64,000 nucleotides of DNA from a virus, in the IMG/VR virus record IMGVR_UViG_3300033978_000437; one strand, 5' to 3'. Made by a program: the position numbers and the translations under genes. Within the stretch, counting starts at the first letter, position 1; every line of letters begins with the position of its first letter. The notes beneath the pieces were generated by a model, which worked only from the letters and a program-made list of their open reading frames with translations, had not been told where the DNA came from and searched no databases. Positions 1-64,000 of the stretch are shown here, one piece after another.

Positions 1-5533
<5,533 letters not shown>

Positions 5534-22304: not shown

Positions 22305-23042
22305 TTACCTCGGAATAAAAGGAGACAATTTTTGTTCTTGATCCAGCAATTGCTGTATCTTAGTTTTACGCTGGGTAATAGCACCTGGGCTGCGATTAAG
22401 CTTGGCAGCAATTTCTTGATTTGATAGTTTTTTATTTCCACGCATTCCCAATGTCAGTTCCATGATGCGCTGGTCTAAAGGACTTAGCCCTTGATAAACT
22501 ACTTCACCCCATAGGTCTGCACTAGCTTGCTGGTTAGGAACTACACTTGGAGCACCTCCCGCTAATGGGTCAATTGCATCTAATCTTCCTGTGTTAACTC
22601 CGGGCTGATAGCTACGAATCTTTGCAAGACGGGGCATAGCTATCCCCAGCTTGTCTGATAGTTCTGCGTCAGTAGGATCTCGCCCAAGCTCGTCTGACAG
22701 CTCTTGTGTAGATCCGTGTAACCTTTGATTCTCTAGCAAGATGCGTTCAGGTACGCTTATTACTTGATGCTGCTGCTGGTTAATCCTACGAAGCCCTTGC
22801 ATCTGGGTTAACAAGTGCGACTGAAGGCGGGACCGCTTTGGATCGTACTTACGCACTGCGTCCAATGCTAACAGCTTGGCACGGCTAGACGTTAATGGAC
22901 TATCTGCACCATACATCTTGACCCCCTTTTGTACTATTGGATCAAGTGCTTTTAGTAAGGCAGCGTTGCCTTCTGGTGTTTGATTCTGCTGCCAGCTTTG
23001 AAATGCTGGTTTATATTCGTCTTCTAAATAATCGTCCATCAT
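22305..23042 (-). CDS. Sigma-70-family sigma factor (regions 2-4)
   Basis: AVRKYDPKR-SRLQSHL (region 2); ISVP...ELSDELGRDPTDAELSDKLGI (region 3); LSPLDQRIMELTLG...LSNQEIAAKLNRSPGAITQRK (region 4 HTH). Confidence 0.88.
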   Translation of the reverse strand: MMDDYLEDEYKPAFQSWQQNQTPEGNAALLKALDPIVQKGVKMYGADSPLTSSRAKLLALDAVRKYDPKRSRLQSHLLTQMQGLRRINQQQHQVISVPERILLENQRLHGSTQELSDELGRDPTDAELSDKLGIAMPRLAKIRSYQPGVNTGRLDAIDPLAGGAPSVVPNQQASADLWGEVVYQGLSPLDQRIMELTLGMRGNKKLSNQEIAAKLNRSPGAITQRKTKIQQLLDQEQKLSPFIPR

Positions 23043-29300: not shown

Positions 29301-31502
29301 TCCTTTATCCCCTTGCTTCTGTATTCCAGTAGACAATCGTTGTAAAATGCTACCTTTAGGTCCGAGCCCAGACATTGCTTCATTTAAACCAGCTCTTGCA
29401 CCCACTTCAGCTTGTTTCTCTTCTCGGCTTTCTCGCACAGCCTTACCATGCACTTGTGCGTAAGAAGTAGCATCCATTCCCAGCTTATTGCGTAGTACTG
29501 TCTCCCTCTGCCCAAAAGAAGTAGCAGCCATATTCTGAGCTTCTGCCTCACTTAAGACTACTCCACGGTTAGCCGCCTCTGCTTGTATTGCATCGGCAAT
29601 CGCTCGGTTTCTTTGTTTTGGATCTTGCAACTGTGCCATAGTCAATTCGTCAGTAGCATCCGTGGCCGCTTTACCAAGTGCAGCTGCAATTTCTGTGCGT
29701 TGCTTAGGATCTGCCACTTGTTCTTGAAGTGCTTTGCTTGACGATAGACGATTGCCGGTAGTTCTAGCAATTTGCTTTGCAATTTCAGCAGGCTGCTGTC
29801 TCATCGCAGCCTGTTGCCGCTCTTCATTAGTAGACAAAGCACGTAGGTTAGAAGTTCGATCCCCTAACATCATGTTAAAGTCCGAGGTGTTCATTCCATT
29901 CACAGCACCTCGCCCGACCATACTTCTAAATTCACCCTCTTTTGTTGGGGTGTTCTTTGTATGTGATTTACCTGAATCATCTACAAATGTGTAATTCGGT
30001 GCCCCAGAATCAGCGGCAGCTAATGCAGCTTTCATCTCTCGCCCAGCTTGATTCTCGGAAAAACCACCAGCTTCTTCGATGCGGGTTAAGGCTCCTAAAG
30101 AGTTAGCCATTTCAGAACCCATCCCACGAGAGAATAGGCCCATGGATGCCTGCTCTGCTTGTTCTCGGTTTAGTGCTCCAAATCCAGTAGCTCCACCATG
30201 CTCTGCAAAAGCCATACCTGTAGTAGTTCCAACCTTAAGCGATGTAGGATTAAAATGAACTCCATGACCCCCCATCATCTGAGTGTTCTGCGAGTTGGCA
30301 TATTGATTCATTGCAGTCAATTGATCGATACTTTTACCCGAAAGTTGAGACATGGCCTGCATATCTCGTACCATCGAAGTAAGCTGCCCTGGTGTAAATT
30401 TCTGCATCTGCCCCGAGGTCATGGCTTTAAGTGCATTTATTAATTTTGGAACAGGTGCGTTTGGATCTCCATTCTCACCGAACACCTCACGAATAGCCGA
30501 AAGCGATCCAACATAATTTTGTAGTTGGTCTGATATCTGCCTAGCGTCGTCCTTGCCCATTTTAGCTGAGACACCTGAATCTTTTCTCAGTTTAGATAAT
30601 TGTTCATTGGACAAGCTAGCAAGGTTGGTATCGTCTCCGATTTCAACTCCAACTTTTTTACCTATCGCTTTTAAATCCATCCCTTGTTCTCTACCTTCTT
30701 GTAAAGATTGAAGGGTGCGATCCCGCAAACTTCCGGTAGGACCAACCAAGCCTTCTGCGGATAATTGTCTATATGCTTGCCCCATATCTCCAGCCCGCAT
30801 CCCATTCATTTGGGCCATGTTGTCCCTAGAAAACATGTTTTCAAAAACATTATTAACTAAGTTTTTATTGGAGTCAGTGCTGTATCCCATTTTACCTGTG
30901 ATGGGGTCCGCTCGGTAGCGGTTTGCTTCCATCATCTGCCCAGCCATTGCTTGTACGCTGCCTTTTTCCCCAGAAATTGCATCCATGAAATCAGGAGCGA
31001 CCATTGATAAAGTAGGCCCAAGCGAAGAAATAGTATCCGCCATATTGCGTGCGGCTTCTCGTTGTCTACGATCAAAAGGAACGCCAGCTAAAGCAGCGGC
31101 TCCTCGGAAAGAACGATAAATACCCTCGGAGTCTTGCCCCGCCACCCCTGCACCTACTTCATTTTTCATCCGTAAGTGTTCACGAGTGCGGTGTGCTTGC
31201 ATGTAGGAACCAGCGTTACCCATAGGCATTAAGCCTTGCTGCTGCATCTGCTGAGATAAGTAAGCATTACCAGCACCCGCAGCTAGCATTCCACCTATGC
31301 CAAATTGTTGTAAGTTTAGAGGAGCTAAAGGAGATGTGTCGGGTAATGCATTACCTTGGATCGGAGAGGAATATCCTCGTGCCAACTGAGCTAAATACCC
31401 AGCACCCCCAGTGGGATGGGGACTAAATGCTCCACCTGGGAGCATCCCTAGTCCTTGTGTTGCATCTTGCATCCACTCTAATTGGCTGGGATCCATGGTC
31501 AT
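26307..31502 (-). CDS. Tape measure protein
   Basis: 1731 aa; helical and A/G/K/E/Q/M-rich; almost no Cys or Trp; follows the chaperone pair and precedes the baseplate genes. Confidence 0.85.
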   Translation of the reverse strand: MTMDPSQLEWMQDATQGLGMLPGGAFSPHPTGGAGYLAQLARGYSSPIQGNALPDTSPLAPLNLQQFGIGGMLAAGAGNAYLSQQMQQQGLMPMGNAGSYMQAHRTREHLRMKNEVGAGVAGQDSEGIYRSFRGAAALAGVPFDRRQREAARNMADTISSLGPTLSMVAPDFMDAISGEKGSVQAMAGQMMEANRYRADPITGKMGYSTDSNKNLVNNVFENMFSRDNMAQMNGMRAGDMGQAYRQLSAEGLVGPTGSLRDRTLQSLQEGREQGMDLKAIGKKVGVEIGDDTNLASLSNEQLSKLRKDSGVSAKMGKDDARQISDQLQNYVGSLSAIREVFGENGDPNAPVPKLINALKAMTSGQMQKFTPGQLTSMVRDMQAMSQLSGKSIDQLTAMNQYANSQNTQMMGGHGVHFNPTSLKVGTTTGMAFAEHGGATGFGALNREQAEQASMGLFSRGMGSEMANSLGALTRIEEAGGFSENQAGREMKAALAAADSGAPNYTFVDDSGKSHTKNTPTKEGEFRSMVGRGAVNGMNTSDFNMMLGDRTSNLRALSTNEERQQAAMRQQPAEIAKQIARTTGNRLSSSKALQEQVADPKQRTEIAAALGKAATDATDELTMAQLQDPKQRNRAIADAIQAEAANRGVVLSEAEAQNMAATSFGQRETVLRNKLGMDATSYAQVHGKAVRESREEKQAEVGARAGLNEAMSGLGPKGSILQRLSTGIQKQGDKGEDANLATLMGDMFAGDMDEAAAKLNKPLESVRASQSKIESLTAKLQGASPEEKKKIQKEIKEETALLKQHVTASREMSDSLGLTDKEGEFNQADIAKGKTAARELDHFNRMEQVRAAGSTAEVTKQERKDAGTTKLTDSDMRVLAEKDRTKQLEEADKLSAGAIKNLSPEAKAVYDKAIKSGANEETARARVKEKLRGDVVSVDVRAKEMREELGADATVGGLKDEKTQDAIIQGRRGGVELKPTAKAVDERTELMRTEAAGQKKLTKEELKALDPAALKAYNSSEKQLTQKAEDQLLAENQLRSLGVLGADEKLSGKGADIAKYKGLDGADKAQLKKDLVAAKSEDRAAIVSKYIDNKQIEQFYGKTEADVTKKRDAANTYADSAEGKRAAQDTESRIGSLSEMRREFLSDSKAVSRGGARAIIAAKQSQESEEQLQSMANKYFGGDVGKMVSSGGVALDKKGQDQVKADFNKLSDAEKTTVTERLKAAGKDVGTGMFGGSNLTEKDYAAYLSLKSKDLVGNMKDSVEGMSGAANKTYADMLKPTEATKTLAKTMVGKDASSEQEKGLQALSSAATLKGTDLKKATAGLDLKTITNQIAAGKPVNTDGMTPEQKELIKSAEGMQGLTGLNKDQITSLDKMAKEDARDVSKDAAALGMKEEDYRKAVRGGEIDPNLKMFKDDPTKGTAKAQLQAARQDESSLSGSKTQLANAKEMLARNPNSPNAQQEVARLSGVVEKKTASKEARMKEAGLDINKPEDVKKYEQRLNNQGVVEQLEKRKAEYTAEATKLRAGGMSESDIVKNLGTMTGLEKDAQKIAKEAKDKDLGSDSMNTLADAFGKTTKEDRQKFSADLGKSGGVAGDRNRQMVANVLKDVGKLTIGGKDATAIDKLDMLTDEYAKAKTPEQKKALAKTHGMSEDALDSMMKKTEFMGLKDKAPGKYGEKDLKESLGRVSTQDIAADVKKEADKTMKLTGTLTIKGTVNGEGNMSETILAPTR

Positions 31503-43968: not shown

Positions 43969-44916
43969 TTAGGTAAAGTCAACCCTAGCAAGACCAGAGG
44001 TATGACCAATGGTGCCACCTAAGGTTTCATAAGCAAAGAATTCGATAAAATACGCTTCACGACGGATGTACATCGTGGTGTCTTCTATCAGGTAGCTCTT
44101 GCCGATAAATTTAGGGTCAGCGAAATGATACATCGTACCAGTTGGGACAAGTCCCTTCTTAATAGTGATGATCCACTGAACACCCATAAATTCGCTGTAG
44201 GTCCAACCATTACGCATAATCTCTTCACTAAGATCGCCACCCATATCATTACGATTGAGTTTGGCAACTTCTTTGATAGTGATGTTATTAAGCAAAACGG
44301 AATGAACTTCAAGATTAGAAGGAGTGCCTGGCATAATCTTAAAGCTGTCCCACAGGTTGCTGCGGGTTACCCCACCGCTAAGCTGTTTGTACTGGATTAC
44401 TCCAGAAGTAGGAACAGTTGTTCCTGCGCCAACAAGAGCAGTGTTGACCGCAGAAATAAATTTGCCATCTTCTTCCGCTAACATATCCTTAATGGCATTA
44501 TCGGATAGGATTTGTCTGATATCCATATGCCATGTGCGAAGTTCATCCACATCCTTCGTGAATTTAGGGGTCACGATGCGGTCAAAGGTAACTCGGTACC
44601 TATCACCACGGATGTACAAGTTGGTAGGAAGCGTGGCAAAAGGAATTGAGATTGCTGCTGGAGAATCTGGTTCCTTGTCCACGATCTTTACAGGCTTGTC
44701 CGTGTCAACTTGACGATCAAGATCGTCGTTGCTGAGTGGGATTGGTGGCATAATACGTCTGTAGAAGCCATCTTCACGCATCTTAGTCCTAGTGAAGTCG
44801 TTGACAGCGTCAACAGCTTGCTTTTCTAGGTTAGAGTCACGGGAAGCCAATTTTTCAAAAATTGTCTGACTAAGAAGTTTGCTTTCTTCTTGAGTCATGA
44901 TACTAGAATTAGCCAT
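43969..44916 (-). CDS. Major capsid protein (HK97-type fold inferred)
   Basis: 315 aa; strong SD AAGGAGG; FTRTKMREDGFYRRIMPP, RVTFDRIVTPKFTKDVDEL, DNAIKDMLAEEDGKF, IEFFAYETLGGTIG; follows scaffold and decoration genes. Confidence 0.8.
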   Translation of the reverse strand: MANSSIMTQEESKLLSQTIFEKLASRDSNLEKQAVDAVNDFTRTKMREDGFYRRIMPPIPLSNDDLDRQVDTDKPVKIVDKEPDSPAAISIPFATLPTNLYIRGDRYRVTFDRIVTPKFTKDVDELRTWHMDIRQILSDNAIKDMLAEEDGKFISAVNTALVGAGTTVPTSGVIQYKQLSGGVTRSNLWDSFKIMPGTPSNLEVHSVLLNNITIKEVAKLNRNDMGGDLSEEIMRNGWTYSEFMGVQWIITIKKGLVPTGTMYHFADPKFIGKSYLIEDTTMYIRREAYFIEFFAYETLGGTIGHTSGLARVDFT

Positions 44917-46049: not shown

Positions 46050-47255
46050 TTAACGGCGGGAACGTTCTAGAACTTCTTGAATGTAATCCCGCACATTTTT
46101 ATTAGCTGCACCTTTTTTAGCTGCTGCTTGTTTATAAGCGGCTTCAACTTCCATGTTAGGGGCAGCATTAGCCATCTCTGGAGGAGCACCACCGCCCATG
46201 GAAGGATCCATAGGAGAAGCGCCACCTTCACCACCTTCAGAACCTTGGCCGGCCATGGCCGCTTCTAGTTCTTCGGGAGAAATGCCAAGTTGGTCTAAAA
46301 CAGCTGCTAACTGCTCTACATCGTCGCCACCTTCGCCCTCTGGAGCTGCGCCACCGCCCATGGCACCAGCCATGGCAGCTTCGTCACCACCACTCGCAGG
46401 AGTCATACCACCAGCAGAAGGATCCATCTCTGGAGGCATTTCTTCGCCTTCAGCTTGCTTACGCAATTCATTTTGATAACTGTGTAAGTAAACTGCGGCT
46501 TTGTCTGCATCGTCATTAGCAGTCTTGATGATTTCGCTCAAAGTAGAATACACAAGGGAGTCAGCAGCTCGTTTATCGAACTGACCACTCAATAATCCTG
46601 CAAGTTCCCAGCCAGCTTGGCCAGCAAGATCTACTGCACCTTTTTCTTCCATTATGTCAGATGCAGAGTCAGAATCTGAATCAGATTTGCGGGCTTCTTC
46701 GTCATCATCGTGGAATTCTGCGTTCTTTGTCAAAGAGACAAGAACACGGTTTCCAAGATCATTAGAAAGCTTGTGCAATTCTGCAGTGGACATAGATGCA
46801 TATTTATTGCCATCTAATTCACTATTGTCAGTGCTAGCAGGATGTGAAGTTTCCACATCGTCTTTTTCAGCTTTTACTGAAGAGGTTTCCACTGAAGGAT
46901 CCTCTCCGGTTGGTTGCTTATTCGTGCCAATCTGCAGCTGATCATCTGCAGCAGATCCAGTAGGATCCTTTTCAGCAGCCCACTTATTTGCAGAAGCTCG
47001 CTTCTTAGCTGCAGCTTTTTTAGCATTTTCAACAGATGCTGGGCCTTGGTCGGCCTTTACATCTGCTGTGTTTTCTGCAGAACGTGCACCTTCTGATGCA
47101 TCTTCTGTAGAATCATCCACGTCTTTCACAGGGTGGGTGGTTTCTCCGCCAATGCTGCCTGCTTCTGTATTAGCCGCTGCATTCTTTTCGGAATAACCAA
47201 CCGCCTTTAGAAAGCGATCAATAGAGTCTATTTGATTCTTAACTGTTGTCGCCAT
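46050..47255 (-). CDS. Putative capsid scaffolding protein
   Basis: Highly acidic, low-complexity, many KxA motifs, C-terminal basic helix VRDYIQEVLERSRR; located between protease and capsid genes. Confidence 0.65.
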   Translation of the reverse strand: MATTVKNQIDSIDRFLKAVGYSEKNAAANTEAGSIGGETTHPVKDVDDSTEDASEGARSAENTADVKADQGPASVENAKKAAAKKRASANKWAAEKDPTGSAADDQLQIGTNKQPTGEDPSVETSSVKAEKDDVETSHPASTDNSELDGNKYASMSTAELHKLSNDLGNRVLVSLTKNAEFHDDDEEARKSDSDSDSASDIMEEKGAVDLAGQAGWELAGLLSGQFDKRAADSLVYSTLSEIIKTANDDADKAAVYLHSYQNELRKQAEGEEMPPEMDPSAGGMTPASGGDEAAMAGAMGGGAAPEGEGGDDVEQLAAVLDQLGISPEELEAAMAGQGSEGGEGGASPMDPSMGGGAPPEMANAAPNMEVEAAYKQAAAKKGAANKNVRDYIQEVLERSRR

Positions 47256-53100: not shown

Positions 53101-55632
53101 TTAGTTCCTTGAAACTTCGTCTAAGTTAATGTCACCTTTATCAAATGATGACTCAATAGTCTTCTCTTTCAAGAAGAGTGTAATATCACCAAGAGATTCA
53201 AAGGCATTCCGTAAACTATCTTCTAATTCTGGAAGATCACTTTTACCATATCTATCTTCAAATTCTTCTTGATGCCAGTAGAAATTCATCAACAACCGGC
53301 CTAGCGAATCCAAGGCTGCCATTAAGTCGCCCAAGTGGCGGTCTACCAGTGAATCTTGTCTTACTGTTTTTAACATACCTGCCATCATTGAAACATCAAA
53401 TACTTCTTTCTGACCATCTTTGCCAGCAGTTTGTGCTGATTGCAGATTTTGTTGAAAATCTTTAGCTTCAAAGTTCTGCCAGTTGTCCCACTTGGATCTA
53501 TTTGTATTCTTACCACTCATTGAGGGTATAGGTGAATTCTTTTCCGTAGGATAGCGAGTCAAGGCAGATGTGCTTGGCCCAAATGTCTCGCTACCACGAT
53601 CCCCAGAAGTGTCCGTATCAAGGGGGAACGAAGGACCTCCAGCTAACACACTAGTATTAGGTGCAGCTTGTTTCTCTGTGCCATAGCCAGCAGCATACAG
53701 CACACGATAAATTGCATGCCCTGACTTCTCTGCTTTTTGCAGCATATCCATAGCAACTTTTTCACGAAGTCCATGTGTGTCTACCAACCGGCATAATGCT
53801 GCTTTTTTGCTTAATTGAACGGCACCGATTACAGAGTCTAAGTACACATCGGTGCCGTTATTGAATATTTTGAGCCTAGCTGTCTTTTCAACTAATAAGC
53901 GTTTGATGTCAGATAAGCCACCTAACTTAATAGGATTTGATTCATCGTCAAAAGGTGAACAGCCACACCCACCAAAGATGCTGGAAGAAGAACCATCCGA
54001 CAATTTGATGAACTTGAAAGAAGCTGGCACACGAAGTTGCCCGGAGACAGGTCTAAGTCTAAGGCCGCTCTTATCTTCTTTGCCAATGATTAGAGTAGCC
54101 CCATAATTACTATTACTATTGAAAGAACTTATTAGATTAGCACCTGCTGCCATGCCCCGCCTAGAAGGAGCATACCGATCTTGTATCTTAGGCATCAGCT
54201 CGCTACGTGAAGCTGAATAATCTTTATTCGTGCGAAAATCTACTTTGTACTCACCATCACCCATGTCCGTAGTTACACGGAAAGGCGCAGTAGCCGAACG
54301 ACTGTAGTTTATAGCGATATATTCTGCATCCTCGTCTAAGTCTGTGTCAGAGGATAAGCCGTCAAACCAATCTTTCCATTCGTCTTTGTCCGAAACTTGT
54401 GTAGCAAAAACTGATGTGCTGTCGGCATTTAACCAGCTTTTATTAGCTCCATCCTTTTTATCTATCCGTACAACTGTGGTCATGGACTCTGCTCCACGAC
54501 TGCTGATACCATTCAAGACCACCAGCATTTTGCTAAATTCACCAGAGCTTTCTAAAACAGAATATAATTCAGTTTCAGAGGGGTTAGTGAGGCTAATATC
54601 ATTTTCAGTGGTGTAAAGCTTACTTACTTCTGTATCTTCTCTACGATCTTTGATGACTACTTTGCCTTGCAGCAATTTCTCTCGGTCTGAAGTGCCCAAA
54701 TCAGATTTGTTCGTAACCACCGATGCGGACATATAGATCTCTAACTTACCTTCTTTAATGTGATCGGTAATAGGCTGGGGCTGGGAGAGCGTACCCAGCA
54801 AGGTAGTAGGCACAAGTGTGACGGTAGTAGGCGTAGGAAGAATGCTGCTAGCCTGCTTGATTGTGTTACTTCGAAGTTCTTTAGCCCAGCGGGAAAAACA
54901 ATCAACACCATAAAAGTCACTAGTAGCTTTTTTAATGGTGGGATAGCGTTCTGCTAAGTCGTAAGCTGCTTCAAGTAATGCCAAGCTTTTAGGGAGCACT
55001 TGGTTAAAATCCAGATTTGAAGCTGTCTTTGCTAGCGCCGCTTCAAATGGCACTTGGACAACTGCCTTTTGATCCAACTTGCGATTACCTGCGCCACGAT
55101 ACAAGGATCCGGCAAATTTTACTTTGAAGGCGGCAAGCATAGGAAGCACAGGTGCTAGCCAATGAGAATCACTTGCGTGCTTGTTGCCTTGGGGCGAAAT
55201 AGACAAAGAGTTAATGTCAGGGGCAATGCCTCCGAGCTCTTGTAATTTGCCTACAGAAGGTTCTCCTAAAATATGAGGTTTCCGGCTCATAAGATAGTTG
55301 ATCCAATTTTCTTTCATTGGAACAAATGAATCATTATTTTTTATGTAGAGTAGCTCGTGTCCTTTTAAATCACCATTTAAGAAAAAGACAGGAGCATACA
55401 ACCACTGCTTACCGATTTGAAAGCCAAAAACACCAATAGCTTTAGTATTGTCTTCATTACGATCAATTAGCTGGAAGCCCAACATATAATCAAGAAGTCT
55501 TGGTGCCTTATCTTTTAGATAAGCATAGGCTAAGCTAGAGAAAGCTTGTTCAAATTCTGTTTCTCCTCCCTTACCGCCGATACTAGCATTCTTCAATAAA
55601 TTATTTTTTCTAGACATTTTCATGAGCCACAT
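53101..55632 (-). CDS. Large head-associated protein of unknown function
   Basis: 843 aa (start may be 55623); KNAS, KHAS, KTAS, KQAS and EKQAA motifs. Confidence 0.6.
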   Translation of the reverse strand: MWLMKMSRKNNLLKNASIGGKGGETEFEQAFSSLAYAYLKDKAPRLLDYMLGFQLIDRNEDNTKAIGVFGFQIGKQWLYAPVFFLNGDLKGHELLYIKNNDSFVPMKENWINYLMSRKPHILGEPSVGKLQELGGIAPDINSLSISPQGNKHASDSHWLAPVLPMLAAFKVKFAGSLYRGAGNRKLDQKAVVQVPFEAALAKTASNLDFNQVLPKSLALLEAAYDLAERYPTIKKATSDFYGVDCFSRWAKELRSNTIKQASSILPTPTTVTLVPTTLLGTLSQPQPITDHIKEGKLEIYMSASVVTNKSDLGTSDREKLLQGKVVIKDRREDTEVSKLYTTENDISLTNPSETELYSVLESSGEFSKMLVVLNGISSRGAESMTTVVRIDKKDGANKSWLNADSTSVFATQVSDKDEWKDWFDGLSSDTDLDEDAEYIAINYSRSATAPFRVTTDMGDGEYKVDFRTNKDYSASRSELMPKIQDRYAPSRRGMAAGANLISSFNSNSNYGATLIIGKEDKSGLRLRPVSGQLRVPASFKFIKLSDGSSSSIFGGCGCSPFDDESNPIKLGGLSDIKRLLVEKTARLKIFNNGTDVYLDSVIGAVQLSKKAALCRLVDTHGLREKVAMDMLQKAEKSGHAIYRVLYAAGYGTEKQAAPNTSVLAGGPSFPLDTDTSGDRGSETFGPSTSALTRYPTEKNSPIPSMSGKNTNRSKWDNWQNFEAKDFQQNLQSAQTAGKDGQKEVFDVSMMAGMLKTVRQDSLVDRHLGDLMAALDSLGRLLMNFYWHQEEFEDRYGKSDLPELEDSLRNAFESLGDITLFLKEKTIESSFDKGDINLDEVSRN

Positions 55633-55945: not shown

Positions 55946-58900
55946 TCATTTAGAACTTTCTGCCCATCCTCGATACTCCGCTAGATCTTCATTGTTAGTT
56001 CTCAATTGGGATTCTAGTTTCGCCCTTTGTTCTGGCGGAAGAGAAGTATCTCGAAGTTGTGCTTCAACTGCCACAATGTTTTCTTTAAGCCCATTAACTC
56101 GATTACGCATGTCCGTGCTAAACAAGCCCTTACCTGAAGAACCACCCTCTCGCTCGTAAGTACCCATCATCTGCTTACGCTGTGCCTGTCTATTTAATAA
56201 CTGCTCCTGCCTTGCTTGCCCCCCTGCGTCTAGCTCCCCCTTAGCTTTTAACTCTGCTAGTTCTGTGTCCGCAGCTGTAACCGAATTTTGCATGGCATCA
56301 CGGAATTTGTGTCCGCCACTACCAAACCAATTTTGTTGGCCTAGTCTCCAGTTAGCTGTTTCATCCGCTGTATTTCCTTGTCTAGTTTTAGCGTCTTGTA
56401 TTTGTGCTTTTAAATCTGCAGTACCTTCTAAATTCTGCGGTTTAGTCAAAGCTAATTGTGCTTCTAGACCTTTTTGCTTTTCTACTTCCATTGCATTAAC
56501 TTGCGTTTTGTCTGCCACCGAGGCACGGGAACGAGCATCAGTTCCAGTTACTTTGTCACGAATAGCTTCACCGGCCATCCCAGCCTGCTCCCCAAGCATC
56601 CCCGCTGTCTGAGTTGCACCCCCAGCTATTAGCTGCGCATTAGCCACTGGGTTAAGAGCTTGTGCAGGGGCTTGCCATGCTGTATGCAGCCCATCTTTAA
56701 ACGAAAGAATGTCTCTCCAGTTTTGTGCTGCATCATTGGTTGTATTATCCCAACCTTTATCTACTATGTCTGAACCAACGCTATAAGCTTCCATACCTGC
56801 ACCAAGGAATGGCAGAGCTTTTCCTACTCCTTTAGTAAGTGCTGAAAATCCTTTACCTACATAACCTGCAGGTGCTTTAGGTAATGGGGGTGGACCTTTA
56901 GGCAATGGCGGGGGGCTACCAGGCACAGGTGGTGGAGTTGTAGGAAAGGGGGGCGGGCTTCCGGGTATAGGAGGCGGAGTGGTAGGAAATGCAGGTGGTT
57001 TAGGTGCCATAATTGTATTTTTTATACCATTGTAGCCAATTGGAGCAGCATACCCAAATGCTGTACCTGTATCTGGACCCGAGCGGGCTGCTGGTTTTTC
57101 CTCTGTAGGCGAGTCTACTGTAGGAGCAGATGCTGTAGGGGCACTAGGCTGGGAACCGCCACCAAACATATTAAGCATGCTATTCCACATCCCACCTTGG
57201 TTTGCAGCTGGGGTAGGACTGCTGCTAGGTGCATTAGATTGCGGGCTTTGGTTTAAATTTTGTTGTCCTTGTCCGCTGTTGTTTTGGGCACCACCCCCAA
57301 ACATATTAAGCATATTACCCCACAACCCATTATTATTACTTGTAGCTAATCCTTGTGAGGGTCTCGAATTAAATAGCTGTTGAAAATTACCACCACCAGC
57401 CATCCCACCTAACATCATAAGCCCCATTAAAGGATTTTGATTTAACATCTGCCCAGCTTGCCCTGCAAAATTAGAATTATTTTGCATCAAATAATTAAAG
57501 TGATTAAATTGATCCGAATTTGAGGTTGGGGTAGGTGTAGATGCGGGCGGAGGGGCTAAAGCAGAAGTGCCCTGATCGCCCTTTGCGTCAGTATCTTTGT
57601 ATGTGTCATACAGTGATGGGGCGGGGGCAGGAGTAGGTGCAGGCGCAGGAGTAGGTGCAGGGGTAGGTGGCAGAGCTGGCATGATATTTGGGCTAAGGTC
57701 AGCTGCTGGGGTATAAGGATGAGGTTCAGTATTATTACGAGGGGCAACCCCGCCTTCCATATGTTCTGGGGAATTTGACCCATTCCTTGGGGCTGGTCCG
57801 CCCATATATTCTGTAGCAGGGGTATTGGGTATCGGTTTAGAGACGGCAGGAGGCTTAGAAACGGAAGGTGGTTTAGAAACATCTGGAACAGAGTCCATCG
57901 CAAGCTTAGTTTGGCCAGGGGTAAAACGACCGCCAAAAAAAGGAGCGTTGCTAGGTGCTATAGGCTTTAATGCAGGAGGAGTAGGAGTTGCAGGTAGCTC
58001 ATAGCTAGGTTTAGGTTTTATTACCGCATGGTCTTTACCTTCTCCAAAATCAAGACCCATTGCTAAACTAGGAACAAAGCTTGTACCTCGTTCTTCGCTG
58101 ATAGCCCCATGAGTCACAGAATCTAAGAAACTTTTCTTTAAACCAGACCCATACATTTGAGTCATCCAGTCAGGATCATGCTGCATTTGATACAAACCAC
58201 GAACCATGTGGGGCTCAAATGGCGGAGGGTTCTTGTGTACTGGAATTTCATTGATTTCAAAATCTTGAAAATTCTTAAGCATAGAAGGTCGAATTTTAGT
58301 ACCAATAGTGTAATGCAGTATAGGTCGTTCAAGATATTGACCTAGTGCTCGCTTAGGAGTTAATCGCTGGTGGTCTTCTCGTGGTTTGTAAGTGTGCTCA
58401 AGCGTAGAGTAAGGAACAATATCGTCAGGTACATGGTCATCTGTTTCTTCTGTCAGCCTTACATGGTTAATAAGACCTCGAGCTAATACCTCTATGTTTC
58501 GTCTGTGCCCGAACATTCCGCTGTCACCCATTGCCTTACGAAACTCATTAACAAAATAGCGTCTTCCTTCGCCTACCCCTTTGTGCTCTGTAATAGTAGC
58601 AGGGTTAGGAATTCCTGAGCTAATTACATCCCCAGCCTCTACCTCGTCTCCTTTTTTTACTTTAAGATCAAACCCAGCCCCTACATAATGTTGTTTATCT
58701 CCAATGGTTACATAGCTACCACCCGCAGGAGCTTCCTCAATACGCTGTACTACTCCATCTTTTAGTGCATGCGCTGCCCCGCCTTGCATCTTCTTTGGAA
58801 CTTGCACTAATTGGTTTAAATACTGGAAACCGCTGACAGCTTTTTCTTGACCTGCCACTCCACCCGAATGTTTTGCAGATAGCTGACCTTGGCTAATCGG

Positions 58901-59878
58901 TTCACTTAAAGCATGTGCAGCCTGTAACCCAACTTGCTCGCCAAGCCCTGGAAGCTTTCCAGTTTCCCGAATACCTACATCCCTAGAATAAACACCACCA
59001 TCGGGAGATCCACCTACGAGGGCAGATCGTACTAAGATTTTAGATGTGCCAAGCCGTTTTAAATGATTCAGTATTTTCGGAGTAAGGGGAGTGTTTCGAG
59101 CATAAGGGCCAACAGCCCGAGCTAGCAGTGCTCCTTCGTTATCTGCGTCATCAGTGTCTACTACCAATCCTCGAATAGGTGCATCTTCTGCCTCTTCGGC
59201 ATCTTCTCCGGTTACCACTAATCTATGGCTAGTTTGATTAAGTTGTTTGTTAAAAAATCCGGCATCTTGTGTGGCAAACTTAGTTGCCATAATACCTTTA
59301 CGTGCCCCATAGGTTCCGGCCCAATACTCGGCAGGGGACAACCCTTCGCTGTAGCTACGCAGTACAGGGATTGGAATCACATCATCCCGCTGATCCGAAT
59401 ACAGCATGTCTGAACCTAACAAACTAGTTAAATTCATAGACTTACCGCGCGTACCTGACATTACCTGCATCCCAAGCGGATTCTTATTTAGCAATGCCTC
59501 TGCAAGTACTTGTTTTTGTTGTTCTGGACTTTCTTTACCAACGGCACGAATAATCTGCTCATTTCGCTGCTGATCTGTCAAAGATTCGTCAGATAGAATG
59601 TTGGTAAGTGTTGCTCTAACTTTCTGGCGAGAAGCTAATGCCGCTTTGCTTACTTGCAAATGGCGAAGACCAAAAGACATGCCACCCTGCTCTTGAGCCA
59701 TGCTTTGGCCAAGACCACTTAGCTTAAAAGAAATGTCTTTATAACGCTCTGGGTGTTGTTGTGCCACTTGCTGTAATAAAGATTGCAGCCCTTTTTTATC
59801 TAGCACACGATGAGAGTCTCTCAACTCTTCCGGAAGGACATCATTAATTAACAGTTGTCCAACGGTCGTATTCAACAT
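55946..59878 (-). CDS. rpoC: RNA polymerase beta' C-terminal half (~610 aa) fused to a ~700 aa low-complexity/helical extension
   Basis: NTTVG; SGTRG; bridge helix EYWAGTYGARKGIMATKFATQDAGFFNKQL; trigger loop GEQVGLQAAHALSEPISQGQLSAKHSGG; HRRNIEVLARGL; then Pro-rich, Q/N/G/M-rich and amphipathic segments. Confidence 0.92.
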   Translation of the reverse strand: MLNTTVGQLLINDVLPEELRDSHRVLDKKGLQSLLQQVAQQHPERYKDISFKLSGLGQSMAQEQGGMSFGLRHLQVSKAALASRQKVRATLTNILSDESLTDQQRNEQIIRAVGKESPEQQKQVLAEALLNKNPLGMQVMSGTRGKSMNLTSLLGSDMLYSDQRDDVIPIPVLRSYSEGLSPAEYWAGTYGARKGIMATKFATQDAGFFNKQLNQTSHRLVVTGEDAEEAEDAPIRGLVVDTDDADNEGALLARAVGPYARNTPLTPKILNHLKRLGTSKILVRSALVGGSPDGGVYSRDVGIRETGKLPGLGEQVGLQAAHALSEPISQGQLSAKHSGGVAGQEKAVSGFQYLNQLVQVPKKMQGGAAHALKDGVVQRIEEAPAGGSYVTIGDKQHYVGAGFDLKVKKGDEVEAGDVISSGIPNPATITEHKGVGEGRRYFVNEFRKAMGDSGMFGHRRNIEVLARGLINHVRLTEETDDHVPDDIVPYSTLEHTYKPREDHQRLTPKRALGQYLERPILHYTIGTKIRPSMLKNFQDFEINEIPVHKNPPPFEPHMVRGLYQMQHDPDWMTQMYGSGLKKSFLDSVTHGAISEERGTSFVPSLAMGLDFGEGKDHAVIKPKPSYELPATPTPPALKPIAPSNAPFFGGRFTPGQTKLAMDSVPDVSKPPSVSKPPAVSKPIPNTPATEYMGGPAPRNGSNSPEHMEGGVAPRNNTEPHPYTPAADLSPNIMPALPPTPAPTPAPAPTPAPAPSLYDTYKDTDAKGDQGTSALAPPPASTPTPTSNSDQFNHFNYLMQNNSNFAGQAGQMLNQNPLMGLMMLGGMAGGGNFQQLFNSRPSQGLATSNNNGLWGNMLNMFGGGAQNNSGQGQQNLNQSPQSNAPSSSPTPAANQGGMWNSMLNMFGGGSQPSAPTASAPTVDSPTEEKPAARSGPDTGTAFGYAAPIGYNGIKNTIMAPKPPAFPTTPPPIPGSPPPFPTTPPPVPGSPPPLPKGPPPLPKAPAGYVGKGFSALTKGVGKALPFLGAGMEAYSVGSDIVDKGWDNTTNDAAQNWRDILSFKDGLHTAWQAPAQALNPVANAQLIAGGATQTAGMLGEQAGMAGEAIRDKVTGTDARSRASVADKTQVNAMEVEKQKGLEAQLALTKPQNLEGTADLKAQIQDAKTRQGNTADETANWRLGQQNWFGSGGHKFRDAMQNSVTAADTELAELKAKGELDAGGQARQEQLLNRQAQRKQMMGTYEREGGSSGKGLFSTDMRNRVNGLKENIVAVEAQLRDTSLPPEQRAKLESQLRTNNEDLAEYRGWAESSK

Positions 59879-59905
59879 GGATAGTTCTCAGCGTGTGCAA
59901 ATTAT

Positions 59906-59923
59906 TTAAAATCTGGATTTTAG
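59906..59923. promoter_or_regulatory. Near-perfect palindrome TTAAAATCTGGATTTTAG upstream of the beta'-C gene
   Basis: 16 of 18 positions identical to 35841-35858; overlaps the stop codon of 59920..60489. Confidence 0.45.
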
Positions 59924-60489
59924 TCGTCACTATCGTCACCACCAAAGGCGGCTTCGATATCTTTAAGAGTAATTTCTTCACTCTTGCCACGCTTTGCTTT
60001 CTTACGAGATGGCTTAGGTTCATCTTGTATAATAGCAGCCGCCTCTGGCATACTCTCAACAACTTTGACTACTTCTTCTTTAATAGCTTCAGGAGCTAGT
60101 ATAGAAAAAGATATGGAGTCTGCCTGATCACGGGTTAATTCTCCCCGTCCAACCGACATGTCTACAACGATTTGCAGCTGTGTAATTATATATTCAGTGG
60201 CCTTCACTGTGATAAGCGTGGCTCCGTTTTCAAATTCAGCTTGTATGGCTGCGAGCCCATAGCAATTATCAAGTATTTCTAACTCTACTTCTTTTTTTGG
60301 AGGAAGTTGAAGTTTAGCAATAAGAGGGGCATCTTCTAATATAGGTAGTGACATCTCGGCATAATACTTATTATTAGAAGAGTTTAAGTTAGAAGATTGT
60401 TGATAAGTAGGAGCAGGGATAGCTGTAAGGCTAACCTCTGGTTTTCGGTCTCGATAGTAGCAGTCAGAAGATCGTAAAGAATCGTCCAT
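59920..60489 (-). CDS. Hypothetical acidic protein between the RNAP genes
   Basis: 189 aa ORF, co-oriented, 1-nt gap to its neighbour. Confidence 0.6.
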   Translation of the reverse strand: MDDSLRSSDCYYRDRKPEVSLTAIPAPTYQQSSNLNSSNNKYYAEMSLPILEDAPLIAKLQLPPKKEVELEILDNCYGLAAIQAEFENGATLITVKATEYIITQLQIVVDMSVGRGELTRDQADSISFSILAPEAIKEEVVKVVESMPEAAAIIQDEPKPSRKKAKRGKSEEITLKDIEAAFGGDDSDD

Positions 60490-60490
60490 A

Positions 60491-60715
60491 TTACACCTGT
60501 ATCTTAGTAGAAATAACGGTTTCGTTAATACCTAGTTTACGCAAATTATCATTGAAACTGGCATCTTCACAATGAGACACCATAACGCTGGAAGAACCAC
60601 CAAAAAGTGCAGCTACGCTAACTGGAGTACCATCTAGCATACGCACTACAACCTGAGAAGCAGGTATCCTAAGTGGAGGTTTACCAATACTTTCAAGTAC
60701 CTCCACGATAAACAT
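60491..60715 (-). CDS. Small beta-rich hypothetical protein between the RNAP genes
   Basis: 74 aa, co-oriented. Confidence 0.6.
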   Translation of the reverse strand: MFIVEVLESIGKPPLRIPASQVVVRMLDGTPVSVAALFGGSSSVMVSHCEDASFNDNLRKLGINETVISTKIQV

Positions 60716-60727
60716 ATAATAAATCCC

Positions 60728-61462
60728 TTACTTGTTATTATTACGCATTAAAAGTGCAGTAGCCAACGCTGCTACACTGCCACTTTTAACAGAAGTATGT
60801 TGAGGGTAATAATCCGCAGGCAAGCTGAAAGCTGTACCACTTTCCCACGCCTCCGCTGACTTCATAGGAGCAATAGGTTGAATCTGCCCAAGACCACCAC
60901 CCGACTTACCATCGGGAGTAGCTGCCGCTAATCCTGGCCCACCTTGTGCAATCTGGTTTAAGTCTTCAGGTGTTACCACCATATCAGACACAGGTACATG
61001 GATGCCAAGTGCATCAATAATCTTAGCAAGCATTTTCTTAATCTGTACGATTTCGACATTGATGTCAATTTTAGGTTTAAGACCGGGGCCTGCGCCTTGT
61101 GGTTGCCCGCCACCATTAGCTGACATTGCTTGTTGCACTGCCTGTTGAACCATCGGCATTATTGCTGCCATGGGGTCCATAGGGGGAGGAGGTGGAGCAC
61201 CGCCACCCATAGAAGGATCCATAGGAGGAGGTGGGGCACCACCGCCCATAGAAGGATCCATAGGAGGAGCACCGCCCATTGAAGGGTCAGGAGGTGGAGC
61301 ACCACCGCCCATAGAAGGATCCATAGGAGGAGCACCGCCAGAAGGCATAGGAGCCCCCATAGCAGGATCGCCTGCCGCAACAAATGCATATTTAGATAGG
61401 TGTCGTTTTCCTACATGTTGTCGGGCCATCTTTAACAATTCCAAATTAACTGCCATAAACAT
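60728..61462 (-). CDS. Pro/Met/Gly-rich protein with (PPMDPSMGGG)n repeats
   Basis: SD AAGGAG; about 5 imperfect repeats at 61170-61370; SKYAF motif precedes the repeats. Confidence 0.7.
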   Translation of the reverse strand: MFMAVNLELLKMARQHVGKRHLSKYAFVAAGDPAMGAPMPSGGAPPMDPSMGGGAPPPDPSMGGAPPMDPSMGGGAPPPPMDPSMGGGAPPPPPMDPMAAIMPMVQQAVQQAMSANGGGQPQGAGPGLKPKIDINVEIVQIKKMLAKIIDALGIHVPVSDMVVTPEDLNQIAQGGPGLAAATPDGKSGGGLGQIQPIAPMKSAEAWESGTAFSLPADYYPQHTSVKSGSVAALATALLMRNNNK

Positions 61463-61528
61463 ACTCCTTGTGTGATCTCATCTTATGATTCTAAGTTCTA
61501 ATCAAAATCTAGGATAGAGATATATTGC

Positions 61529-64000
61529 CTAACCATTTAAAATTCGTACGGGATCGTTGATCGAAATATCTCCACGTGCATGCGCTCGTCTTACATCCTG
61601 TATATTCTGGAAAATCCTTAATGGTCGATCAGATTTACGAGAAGGATCTGTACCCATAAATAAACCACCAATGTACTCATTAGCAGGGGCATGCATTACA
61701 GACTTCATATCACCCACACTAAAAAGATTACGACTTGGCAATAAGCGGTCAAATGCTTCTTGCCTAGCTTTTTCCGTACTTGGCACATGATAGTTCATGG
61801 TGTCGCCATCAAAGTCAGCACCAAATCCCTTCACGATCAAAGGACTTACTTGTAGGGTATTCCCTTTAGTCAATCTTGGCCTCATCGCCATAATCCCAAA
61901 CTTATGCAAAACAGGAGCACGACTAATATATACAGGACGATGCTCCATCTCTTCAAGCAAGAATTTGCGTGCTACCGGAGTCTTATCTTCTAATTGAGTA
62001 CGAGCCTGCAGCATCGACATGCCTTGTCGCACCAATCTTCTAGTAACAAATTTCTCATAGACCTTAAATGCTTTATCTTCGGGCAGCCCTACCGAGTCCA
62101 TGTCCAATTCCGGATTTGGAGTAATTACCGCTCGACCTACATTGTCTACCGTAGACGAAATCAGTTTGCGTTGTACAACCCCGAACTTAGGGCTTGCACC
62201 AAACACATTTTTTAAAGCCCCACGAACATTCTTCTCTTGGCTTTTTGCACTAATAGGATCACCTAACCCAGTCACCGCTTTAAATGCTTGATAGGTAGAA
62301 AGACGCTCCGATCCCGAAGCTTCTTCCCCTACTTCTTGCTGCATTTTGCTAAAATTCTGATTAGCCTCAAACAGTTCTTTATAAAGGTGATTAGCGTCGT
62401 TAACCAATGGCATGCCATTGCTCATCAAGCTAACTGGACGAAACATTGGAGGAAGAACTGGCACTTTGGTCAGCATGTAGTCCGCAGGCTTCAGCCCTAG
62501 TTTATGTGCAGATTTAAAATAGCTAAGCTTACGAATTGCGGCATCTCGTTGCGCCCCTCGCCCTGCGGCTATCATAGCTCGAGCTTTAGGGATTTCTGCT
62601 TCTGGATTAAGATTCTCTAATGCCTTTTGTAAAGCTTTCGTACCGGTGCCATATTTCTCTAAAAATTCTGTACCTGCCACAATGCCTTCAAACTTTTTCT
62701 GTGTTAGCCCAAGCATATGACGAATAGGTTCTTCCATTACTGGGTTAGGTAAAGGTTCGTGCAAACGCATAAACGACCAACGAGTGCCCCCGTGTCCACC
62801 AGTTTTAGCCTTGTCAAATAAGCCACCATTAATCTCTTTAAGCTGATTTCCCCATTCTACTCCGTCTGCGCTGCTAAGCTCACGATCCCCAGCTAAGTTG
62901 TCAATGTCCTTGTCCGTCAATGCCATGATTTGAGTCTGCGTTCCTTGCTTAACCACATTAACTCCAGCAGATTGCAGCTGGGCTACAAACTTCTGATAAG
63001 CAAAAGGAACTTTAGTAACCTTAGGGTTATACCCAGACATGTACTGCATCCAATAATCATCATTCTTCTGCCTACGAATTGTAAAAATGTCCTGCAGTGT
63101 GTCCGTAGCTCCGTGAGAAAGTAATGCGTTGGCATCCATTAGCCCAATACGCTTAGAACCTTCAACACCACCTTTAGCCGGTGCATCTTCCATCGTGTAA
63201 GCTCCACCACTTCTACCTTGTCCTTTAGACTCAGAGGTGTGATGCAGTTTCATGAAGAAACGATTACCCGTTGCCACATTTTTAATTTTTTGATCTTTAG
63301 ATGGGTCTATAATGTCTTCTAAGTCCGACAAACCTTCCTTAGCTAATTCTTGCATAACCCATTGAGTCATATCTTTTTTAGTGTCAAAATCATCCACCTT
63401 AATAGGCATGCCACGCTTAGCTGCTATTTTACCTAGAAACAATTCAGACATTTGAGCTGGGTTGGTTCGGCTAATAATCCCAAGAGGATTAAGAAGCACT
63501 TCAAAAGGTTGTTTATTTGAATCATGGGGCATTTCGCTATCTGGGATGATGTCAGCAATAACACCTTTATCCCCATAACGACCCGACAGCTTATCTCCAA
63601 CCTGCGTTGGCGATTCTGCCTTAACTACAACGACTGGACCTTTCTTACCCATTACCACATCAGTAACAACACCACTATCGTGATGCTGCCAAAGTACTGC
63701 TGCGTCGTTGAATCCAGATTGACCCTTCTTATGCACTTTGTTGTATACATTTTCCTTTTGTGTGATCCCCAATACCAAAGGATCTCCAAAGTTAACTACT
63801 GTACCAGGCTTGACCACTCCTTGATCGTCTATGTTCGCTAATATGTCTTTTTTAAAGGTAGCTGGAAATGCTTGAATAAATTGTCTTTTACCGACTTGTG
63901 TTTTGTCATCCACTTCCAACTCATGCTGGTACATATGGGAAGAAGCTGTCTTCTTTGCAAAGCTTTCTGAGATAACAACCGCATCTTCAAAGTTTTTACC
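61529..64000 (-). CDS. rpoB-rpoC fusion: RNA polymerase beta (C-terminal part visible) fused to beta' N-terminal half; 5' end beyond window
   Basis: The frame is open to base 64000 (GKNFEDAVVISES). Beta motifs: GDKLSGRYGDKGVI, LLNPLGIISRTN, FFMKLHH, GSKRIGLMD. Beta' motifs: VPVLPPMFRP, VDNVGRAVI, SRAPVLHK, and catalytic GADFDGDTMNYHVP. Confidence 0.95.
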   Translation of the reverse strand, partial: GKNFEDAVVISESFAKKTASSHMYQHELEVDDKTQVGKRQFIQAFPATFKKDILANIDDQGVVKPGTVVNFGDPLVLGITQKENVYNKVHKKGQSGFNDAAVLWQHHDSGVVTDVVMGKKGPVVVVKAESPTQVGDKLSGRYGDKGVIADIIPDSEMPHDSNKQPFEVLLNPLGIISRTNPAQMSELFLGKIAAKRGMPIKVDDFDTKKDMTQWVMQELAKEGLSDLEDIIDPSKDQKIKNVATGNRFFMKLHHTSESKGQGRSGGAYTMEDAPAKGGVEGSKRIGLMDANALLSHGATDTLQDIFTIRRQKNDDYWMQYMSGYNPKVTKVPFAYQKFVAQLQSAGVNVVKQGTQTQIMALTDKDIDNLAGDRELSSADGVEWGNQLKEINGGLFDKAKTGGHGGTRWSFMRLHEPLPNPVMEEPIRHMLGLTQKKFEGIVAGTEFLEKYGTGTKALQKALENLNPEAEIPKARAMIAAGRGAQRDAAIRKLSYFKSAHKLGLKPADYMLTKVPVLPPMFRPVSLMSNGMPLVNDANHLYKELFEANQNFSKMQQEVGEEASGSERLSTYQAFKAVTGLGDPISAKSQEKNVRGALKNVFGASPKFGVVQRKLISSTVDNVGRAVITPNPELDMDSVGLPEDKAFKVYEKFVTRRLVRQGMSMLQARTQLEDKTPVARKFLLEEMEHRPVYISRAPVLHKFGIMAMRPRLTKGNTLQVSPLIVKGFGADFDGDTMNYHVPSTEKARQEAFDRLLPSRNLFSVGDMKSVMHAPANEYIGGLFMGTDPSRKSDRPLRIFQNIQDVRRAHARGDISINDPVRILNG

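Follow-up and report, generated by a model that had tools for sequence, protein, structure and literature searches.

The question raised by this locus is what kind of RNA polymerase is encoded by an uncultured lake phage of ~179 kb in which sequences resembling bacterial beta and beta' appear with their chain boundaries moved. The stretch analysed, referred to here as the window, comprises 64,000 nucleotides of IMG/VR record IMGVR_UViG_3300033978_000437 and corresponds to the reverse strand of G000:C1:114690-178689, within a single viral contig of 178,753 bp that is classed as linear in IMG/VR and has a CheckV completeness estimate of 83%. Nearly all genes of the phage run in one direction. 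On the minus strand, window positions 55946-64000 hold five open reading frames (ORFs): one open at its 5' end (61529-64000), three of 244, 74 and 189 amino acids (aa), and one of 1310 aa (55946-59878). An earlier note on this DNA had read this span as genes for a beta subunit fused to the N-terminal part of beta' (beta'-N) and for a separate C-terminal part (beta'-C). The two polymerase genes are indeed present, but they do not adjoin each other, the three smaller ORFs lying between them. Judged from their sequences, these two genes almost certainly specify a bacterial-type polymerase of two chains that is catalytically competent, paired with sigma and the only one of the phage. The whole reading, in which this two-chain enzyme would be free of alpha and omega, work with its own sigma factor and be packed in the virion for early transcription, is considered probable, with clearly less assurance.

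The 5'-open ORF represents the last 823 codons of a 1488-codon fusion gene (G000:C1:112695-117161, L001:7696-12162), whose start and first 665 codons lie outside the window; retrieval of this upstream part yielded a complete beta. Pfam domains in the fusion protein occur in the order Rpb2_3, Rpb2_6, Rpb1_1 and Rpb1_2 (Rpb1_2 E 1.2e-23), with Rpb2_3 found only in the full-length ORF. To map the boundaries, a phage-family profile was aligned with hhalign to the Salmonella subunits RpoB and RpoC (1342 and 1407 aa, the E. coli lengths). Residues 11-1019 of the fusion correspond to Salmonella beta 9-1342, that is, the whole subunit, with a probability of 100%; the part inside the window (residues 666-1019) occupies 62939-64000 on the minus strand and is assigned by this alignment and by Rpb2_6 (E 3.7e-50 on the full protein). 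The beta segments absent from the fusion, 232-352, 380-408, 945-1044 and 1126-1179, are largely proteobacterial insertions. Residues ~1020-1488 align with beta' ~18-555 and, together with the TAG stop, occupy 61529-62938 (minus strand), an assignment drawn from hhalign, a structural model and NCBIfam, whose rpoC model is matched over positions 157-533. When the junction was compared with Salmonella beta' 1-264, the hhalign probability was 98.8%.

At the junction, the end of beta (...QSAGVNVVKQG) directly abuts the first beta' strand (TQIMALTDKDI), with no linker. An AlphaFold (AF2) model of fusion residues 929-1488, with a predicted local distance difference test score (pLDDT) of 77.3, shows the junction as a confident hairpin. 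In fold alignments of this model, residues 88-93 (fusion 1016-1021) coincide with beta' residues 5-20 of many solved polymerases, and the alignment extends to residue 553 in E. coli and to residues 558-561 of the 615-617 in cyanobacterial gamma (Z ~22). In searches of PDB and NCBIfam, E values were 1e-69 to 1e-90 for bacterial beta and ~1e-44 to 1e-51 for beta' or cyanobacterial gamma, the phage subunits being ~25% identical to their bacterial counterparts. The head-to-tail fusion of beta and beta' proposed from the sequence is thus upheld by the Pfam domain order, the hhalign map and the modelled junction.

The second chain, beta'-C, has 1310 aa and carries the Pfam domain Rpb1_5. Its core, residues 1-618 (58025-59878, minus strand), aligns by hhalign with Salmonella beta' 569-1406 and contains the bridge helix and a trigger loop without the SI3 insertion, beta' ~952-1174 being absent; positions 548-1061 of the NCBIfam rpoC model are matched at E 8e-56. 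The chain begins with MLNTTVGQ, which aligns with beta' 569-LKDTTVGR, so the split falls just before the TTVG segment, as the earlier note had placed it. The cut also lies slightly N-terminal to the cyanobacterial one, as claimed: the cyanobacterial RpoC2 model begins at beta'-C residue 23, and the gamma alignment of the first chain ends at the residues given above.

The core is followed by a lineage-specific tail of ~690 residues. A low-complexity extension of ~390 residues (~619-1010; 56849-58024, minus strand), rich in Pro, Ala, Gly, Ser, Asn and Gln by sequence reading and including polyproline runs, leads into a helix-rich C-terminal domain of ~300 residues (~1011-1310; 55946-56848 with the stop codon, minus strand). 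Among relatives, only the close ones L023, L024 and L026 keep this domain. No stand-alone copies were found, the sole further matches being six fragments from close relatives on short contigs, and Pfam gave nothing beyond a weak coiled-coil match. Relatives usually have a beta'-C of 612-660 aa; in L027, L059, L079, L083 and L084 long tails of similar composition occur but are unrelated. That the tail serves as a packaging or ejection handle is a guess. An E-K-x-A head-protease site was considered and rejected as meaningful here, as it occurs once in beta'-C (residue 927), not at all in the fusion, and is not kept in L023, L024 and L026.

The catalytic elements of both subunits are retained. 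The Mg-binding motif GADFDGD (fusion 1392-1398; 61802-61822, minus strand) aligns to NADFDGD at beta' 458-464, only the first Asn being changed, to Gly, while the three Asp are invariant; A1393, D1394, D1396, G1397 and D1398 are invariant in nine relatives, including Salmonella phage Arash (OQ632216) and Vibrio phage D69. The catalytic lysines of beta are kept in GDKLSGRYGDKG, which aligns to E. coli 1063-1074, with K802 and K810 invariant among relatives. In beta'-C, the bridge helix at residues 182-218 retains GARKG, and the N arm of the trigger loop retains a His at the position of H936; the C arm aligns poorly. The clamp-helix region of beta' is retained in the fusion.

The structural zinc of beta', on the other hand, has been lost. 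The zinc ribbon, E. coli beta' 65-98 (Cys70/72/85/88), is cleanly excised, with TGGHGGTR in its place (62780-62803, minus strand), hhalign showing gaps over Salmonella beta' 65-79 and 82-98. At the second site, beta'-C has other residues instead of the four cysteines (Cys814/888/895/898). Cysteine is absent from all 2798 residues of the two chains, compared with 1.24% in the remaining predicted proteome (P ~8e-17), and both beta' zinc sites are gone because neither chain holds a cysteine. The fusion proteins of relatives have 0-2 Cys in ~1480 residues. Since residues of the rifampicin pocket have diverged in the fusion beta, the phage polymerase is probably insensitive to rifampicin.

The same chain boundaries recur widely. 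A first IMG/VR scan returned ten relatives (42-97% identity), which carry the same two genes, and a profile scan returned 362 stretches, of which the best 80 were analysed. A single ORF covers fusion residues ~30-1486 in 76 of these 80 loci, the stop falling 0-10 residues from a common point; three loci have one further break, at residue ~473/499 or ~945 (L076, L083 and L084), and in none does the fusion ORF continue into beta'-C. A separate beta'-C starting at residues 1-4 of the query lies 0.9-6 kb downstream in 67 of the 80. When fusion residues 900-1488 were searched against 1.84 billion cluster representatives, the best 150 matches all had E <= 3e-153 and 43-69% identity, and among them every single-stretch match spanning the query C-terminus ended <= ~20 residues from its own C-terminus. 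The best phage matches in GenBank, Arash and the Vibrio phages D181, D148 and D69, are 29-30% identical over ~95% of the fusion. Conservation across the 76 loci and the cultured phages indicates that the junctions are real and not the assembly artefacts that the earlier note had named as a possible refutation. The layout occurs in hundreds of metagenomic phages as well as in cultured ones, which form a large, apparently undescribed clade.

Several candidates were set aside in this comparison. The GenBank entry 'Bacteriophage sp.' MT836236, a possible unsplit phage relative, was rejected because it is a piece of a bacterial rpoBC with 45-47% identity to Salmonella, and Ralstonia phage RP13 was rejected because it has small phiKZ-like pieces. 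An intron, intein or homing element as cause of the split was rejected because the boundaries are fixed, the gap content is variable and the three intervening ORFs match no mobile-element family in Pfam, PHROG or NCBIfam. As a separate observation, many relatives have fusion proteins of 1800-3350 aa with interrupted matches, versions of 1800-2358 aa being found at L065, L067, L069-L074, L078, L092, L097 and L098. These longer forms are consistent in sequence with inteins or other insertions, and in Vibrio phages D181 and D148 a homing endonuclease is annotated inside the matched stretch.

The phage also encodes a sigma70-family factor of 245 aa (22305-23042, minus strand), the one homologue found with the Arash sigma factor Gp10 as query (phmmer, 2e-14). 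Its Pfam Sigma70_r3 score is 25.5 bits against a cut-off of 25.3, with a weak match to region 4, and it matches many NCBIfam sigma models, all below their cut-offs. It has 175 homologues of ~245 aa, mostly with PF04539, and the best 50 PDB matches of its AF2 model (pLDDT 76.8) are sigma70-family chains only. This factor is likely the promoter-specificity subunit. Profiles of alpha (PF01000, PF01193) and of omega (PF01192) gave no match at E <= 10 anywhere in the 178.7-kb record, with positive controls matching in 14 of 14 genomes, in agreement with the earlier remark that neither gene is recognisable. On this sequence evidence the polymerase likely works without alpha and omega. A 264-aa ORF (L001:6881-7675, G000:C1:111880-112674) ending 20 nt before the fusion gene and kept in ~23 relatives was tried as a hidden alpha and rejected, as it has three hydrophobic membrane-like segments; its product looks like a membrane protein. 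A single polymerase set is encoded, because models of beta and beta', phiKZ-type PHROG profiles among them, match at one place only, the fusion ORF. A search for a T7-type polymerase gave no match, with an uninformative accompanying control.

Downstream of the polymerase lie virion genes, as the earlier note had observed. An 843-aa protein (53101-55632, minus strand) directly follows beta'-C, and its C-terminal part is homologous to the Arash virion structural protein Gp218 (residues 590-823 against Gp218 429-610, hhalign 97.8%); a homologue stands directly after beta'-C in about 60 of the 80 loci. For this protein an ESM Atlas look-up returned nothing usable. The product of 43969-44916 (minus strand) is a homologue of the Arash major capsid protein gp226 (tblastn, 29% identity, E 3e-33) with a weak PHROG major-head match, and the polymerase genes therefore stand at the head of a virion module.

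Arash and the Vibrio phages have the same beta::beta'-N fusion (1525 and 1527 aa), a separate beta'-C of 606-609 aa and a sigma homologue, the Arash set being Gp206 (fusion), Gp216 (beta'-C) and Gp10. The gene order shared with Arash runs from polymerase through the Gp218-like structural protein, capsid, tail proteins and sigma to the baseplate region. Differences are also evident: overall identity is only 25-30%, the beta'-C of these phages lacks the ~690-residue tail, and in Arash a helicase gene stands immediately after beta'-C, a portal gene just upstream, and other genes between the polymerase genes. In purified Arash virions, Gp206 gave the most spectra (3516), above the major capsid protein, and Gp216, Gp10, the helicase Gp217 and Gp218 (1149 spectra) were also detected (PMC10585845). 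In that paper the Arash proteins are annotated as plain beta and beta', with no account of fusion, split or loss of zinc.

Comparison with other known polymerases clarifies which features are shared. The mReC lineage of Weinheimer and Aylward (2020) also consists of large uncultured tailed phages with a compact bacterial-like beta (~1000 aa) and beta' detectable by hidden Markov models, with polymerase genes among virion genes and a clade that branches deep, distinct from bacteria. In the mReC tables, beta and beta' are different proteins of at least 800 aa each (e.g. 1364 and 1005 aa), with NADxDGD in beta', and the text leaves split, sigma and virion unmentioned and uses 'fusion' only for crAssphage (PMC7481178). 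The layout in these tables differs from that of the present phage, whose Mg motif is on the same protein as beta; some of its relatives derive from metagenomes also used for mReC (3300017987, 3300017991 and 3300018080). In the rpoBC fusions of Helicobacter and Wolbachia (NCBIfam PRK09603 and PRK14844, both models matched by the fusion protein in four stretches), the C-terminus of beta is likewise joined directly to the N-terminus of beta'. There, however, the whole beta' is in the fused chain and zinc sites, alpha and omega are present, whereas the phage chain ends at beta' ~555 at a conserved stop. Cyanobacterial and plastid RpoC1 (gamma) and RpoC2 are likewise cut after the catalytic barrel, and beta'-N aligns to gamma over 460 residues (Z 22), yet the phage cut lies ~55-60 gamma residues earlier and the cyanobacterial enzyme has a separate beta, SI3 and zinc sites.

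Phages also encode the enzymes of the phiKZ/AR9 type, in which alpha and omega are missing, beta' is divided after the barrel and one set is packaged in the virion (PMC7598289). Their beta and beta' are each in two to three pieces and never fused, in two paralogous sets that are far more diverged and lack a sigma70 homologue. The present phage, unlike these, has one set, an intact beta fused to beta'-N, and a sigma70-type factor. The distinctions that the earlier note had drawn from the Helicobacter-type whole-gene fusion and from the phiKZ type accordingly hold. Jumbo-phage polymerase reviews, including PMC7598289, cover only phiKZ/AR9-type enzymes, without sigma, and a full-text literature search did not find the two-chain design described. 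The novelty claimed for the architecture therefore stands in part: it is undescribed in the papers found, but it was already in GenBank in cultured phages, as Arash gp206/gp216 and in D69, D148 and D181. Not mentioned in the same note are the sigma factor that the phage encodes, the absence of either zinc site and the extended beta'-C tail.

The ORFs between the two polymerase genes differ in how widely they are kept. The 244-aa ORF (60728-61462, minus strand) consists mostly of a Pro/Gly/Met-rich low-complexity stretch followed by a short C-terminal part, and a homologue lies between the fusion gene and beta'-C in about 45 of the 80 related loci. It has no significant matches in Pfam, PHROG or NCBIfam, and Atlas returned only unnamed viral clusters. 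An AAGGAG stands 7 nt before an ATG at the third codon (window 61450-61470), which by sequence is probably the true start. The 74-aa ORF (60491-60715, minus strand) occurs in the close relatives L023-L026 and in L079, takes an 80-108-aa form in L027, L037, L059, L083 and L084, and has no family match. The 189-aa ORF (59920-60489, minus strand), with an acidic C-terminus, is found only in the closest relatives and has no significant family match.

Further observations concern the remainder of the contig. A 1731-aa protein of the tail region (26307-31502, minus strand) has no cysteine and no PHROG match, and may be a tape-measure or ejection protein; another Cys-free protein has 975 aa (G000:C1:80296-83223). 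PHROG scans of the large neighbouring proteins gave no match. About 3.7 kb upstream of the polymerase gene lies a ribonucleotide reductase of 759 aa with an ATP-cone and a B12-type insertion domain (L001:1739-4018, G000:C1:106738-109017). Each contig end (G000:C1 1-100 and 178650-178753) falls within a collagen-like Gly-X-Y repeat, at which the assembly probably broke, and a unit of ~237 bp is repeated in the collagen-like gene region at window ~2850-4220. The intergenic word GGTAAGT is enriched and supplies the 3' arm in GC-rich hairpins that precede T-runs (G000:C1:7420-7470 and 46430-46460), and these structures look like intrinsic terminators; k-mer enrichment over 62 intergenic regions returned only this hairpin word and the repeat within the collagen-like gene. 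The window differs from the genome record in two adjacent bases (958-959), distant from the polymerase genes.

A mechanism can be proposed from these features. Chain 1 provides a complete minimal beta and the first ~490 residues of beta', with the clamp helices and the GADFDGD barrel, so that both double-psi barrels are on one polypeptide, and chain 2 provides the bridge helix, the SI3-less trigger loop and the C-terminal clamp and jaw parts of beta'. The two chains would most likely assemble without alpha or omega, the covalent beta-beta' link replacing part of the scaffolding by alpha, and the 245-aa sigma70-type factor would direct the enzyme to promoters. By analogy with Arash, the enzyme would probably be made late, packed in the capsid and delivered with the DNA, and would begin transcribing early genes without recourse to the host polymerase. 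Two chains free of cysteine and zinc, the second with a long disordered tail, would suit a protein that has to be packed and to pass through the phage tail. Packaging for early transcription is probable by this analogy, on the basis of the Arash proteomics, of gene position within a virion module and of the Cys-free composition. A more far-reaching version is put forward only tentatively: a self-sufficient three-protein machine (beta::beta'-N, beta'-C and sigma) lacking alpha, omega and zinc, capsid-packed and tail-threaded, in which the composition and tails would be adaptations to packing, unfolding and ejection and the covalent link would take over the assembly role of alpha.

Certain points weigh against the packaged, alpha- and omega-free enzyme. 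The absence of alpha and omega was judged with Pfam profiles on a record estimated to be 83% complete, and a divergent or non-homologous subunit, such as the product of the conserved 244-aa ORF, or the alpha and omega of the host, may take their place. No conserved promoter motif emerged from k-mer enrichment in the 62 intergenic regions, and the predicted beta'-C start has no clear Shine-Dalgarno sequence. The reading for this phage is drawn from its genes, packaging being taken from one proteomics study of a relative that is 25-30% identical, whose authors state that abundant enzymes may have co-purified (PMC10585845). If the virion signal in Arash is such carry-over, the enzyme would be real but unpackaged, made after infection by way of the host polymerase, and would transcribe middle or late genes, like the non-virion enzymes of phiKZ and AR9. 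The single polymerase set of this phage agrees with that account, phiKZ-type packagers encoding a second one, as does the presence of metabolic enzymes such as ribonucleotide reductases among Arash virion proteins. It is nevertheless judged unlikely, given that Gp206 outranks even the major capsid protein in spectra, that the polymerase genes are inside the virion module in all relatives examined, and that the 1731-aa protein encoded in the tail region is likewise Cys-free.

A further alternative concerns assembly: the core might form only with the host alpha dimer and omega, or with an unrecognised phage substitute, and would then not be truly minimal. The requirement of all cellular multisubunit polymerases for an alpha-like platform is established (PMC7598289), the record is incomplete to the extent given, and the 244-aa ORF is conserved between the polymerase genes in more than half of the relatives. 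Against this, phiKZ and AR9 have non-virion polymerases that need neither alpha nor omega for activity (PMC7598289), the identity of ~25% to bacterial subunits does not assure alpha-binding surfaces, and the candidates are poor, the 244-aa ORF being mostly low-complexity, the 264-aa ORF membrane-like and the alpha and omega profiles without a match; dependence on such partners is accordingly more doubtful still than the lack of packaging. Hardly any credence is left for the fusion and split as an artefact of assembly or frameshift, or as the result of a mobile insertion that brought in the three small ORFs and recently interrupted beta'. Such an origin would fit the three ORFs between the halves and the homing endonucleases or extra breaks of some relatives, but independent assemblies and cultured genomes whose identity ranges from 97% to ~30% retain both the stop and the beta'-C start, the gap varies from 0.9 to 6 kb in content between fixed boundaries, and the ORFs belong to no mobile-element family searched.

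The preferred reading, a packaged two-chain enzyme with its own sigma factor, is testable, since the layout is shared by phages already in culture, namely Salmonella phage Arash and several Vibrio phages. If packaged, the enzyme would represent a third independent route to host-independent early transcription in phages, beside those of N4 and phiKZ, and it would offer a compact, probably rifampicin-insensitive polymerase for structural and synthetic work. To our knowledge, cellular multisubunit RNA polymerases all depend on an alpha-like platform, omega and structural zinc. The phage enzyme is unusual in part because one chain holds the two catalytic barrels, and a widespread enzyme that combines bacterial-type catalysis and a sigma70 factor with none of these three components would define the minimal needs for polymerase assembly and sigma-dependent initiation.

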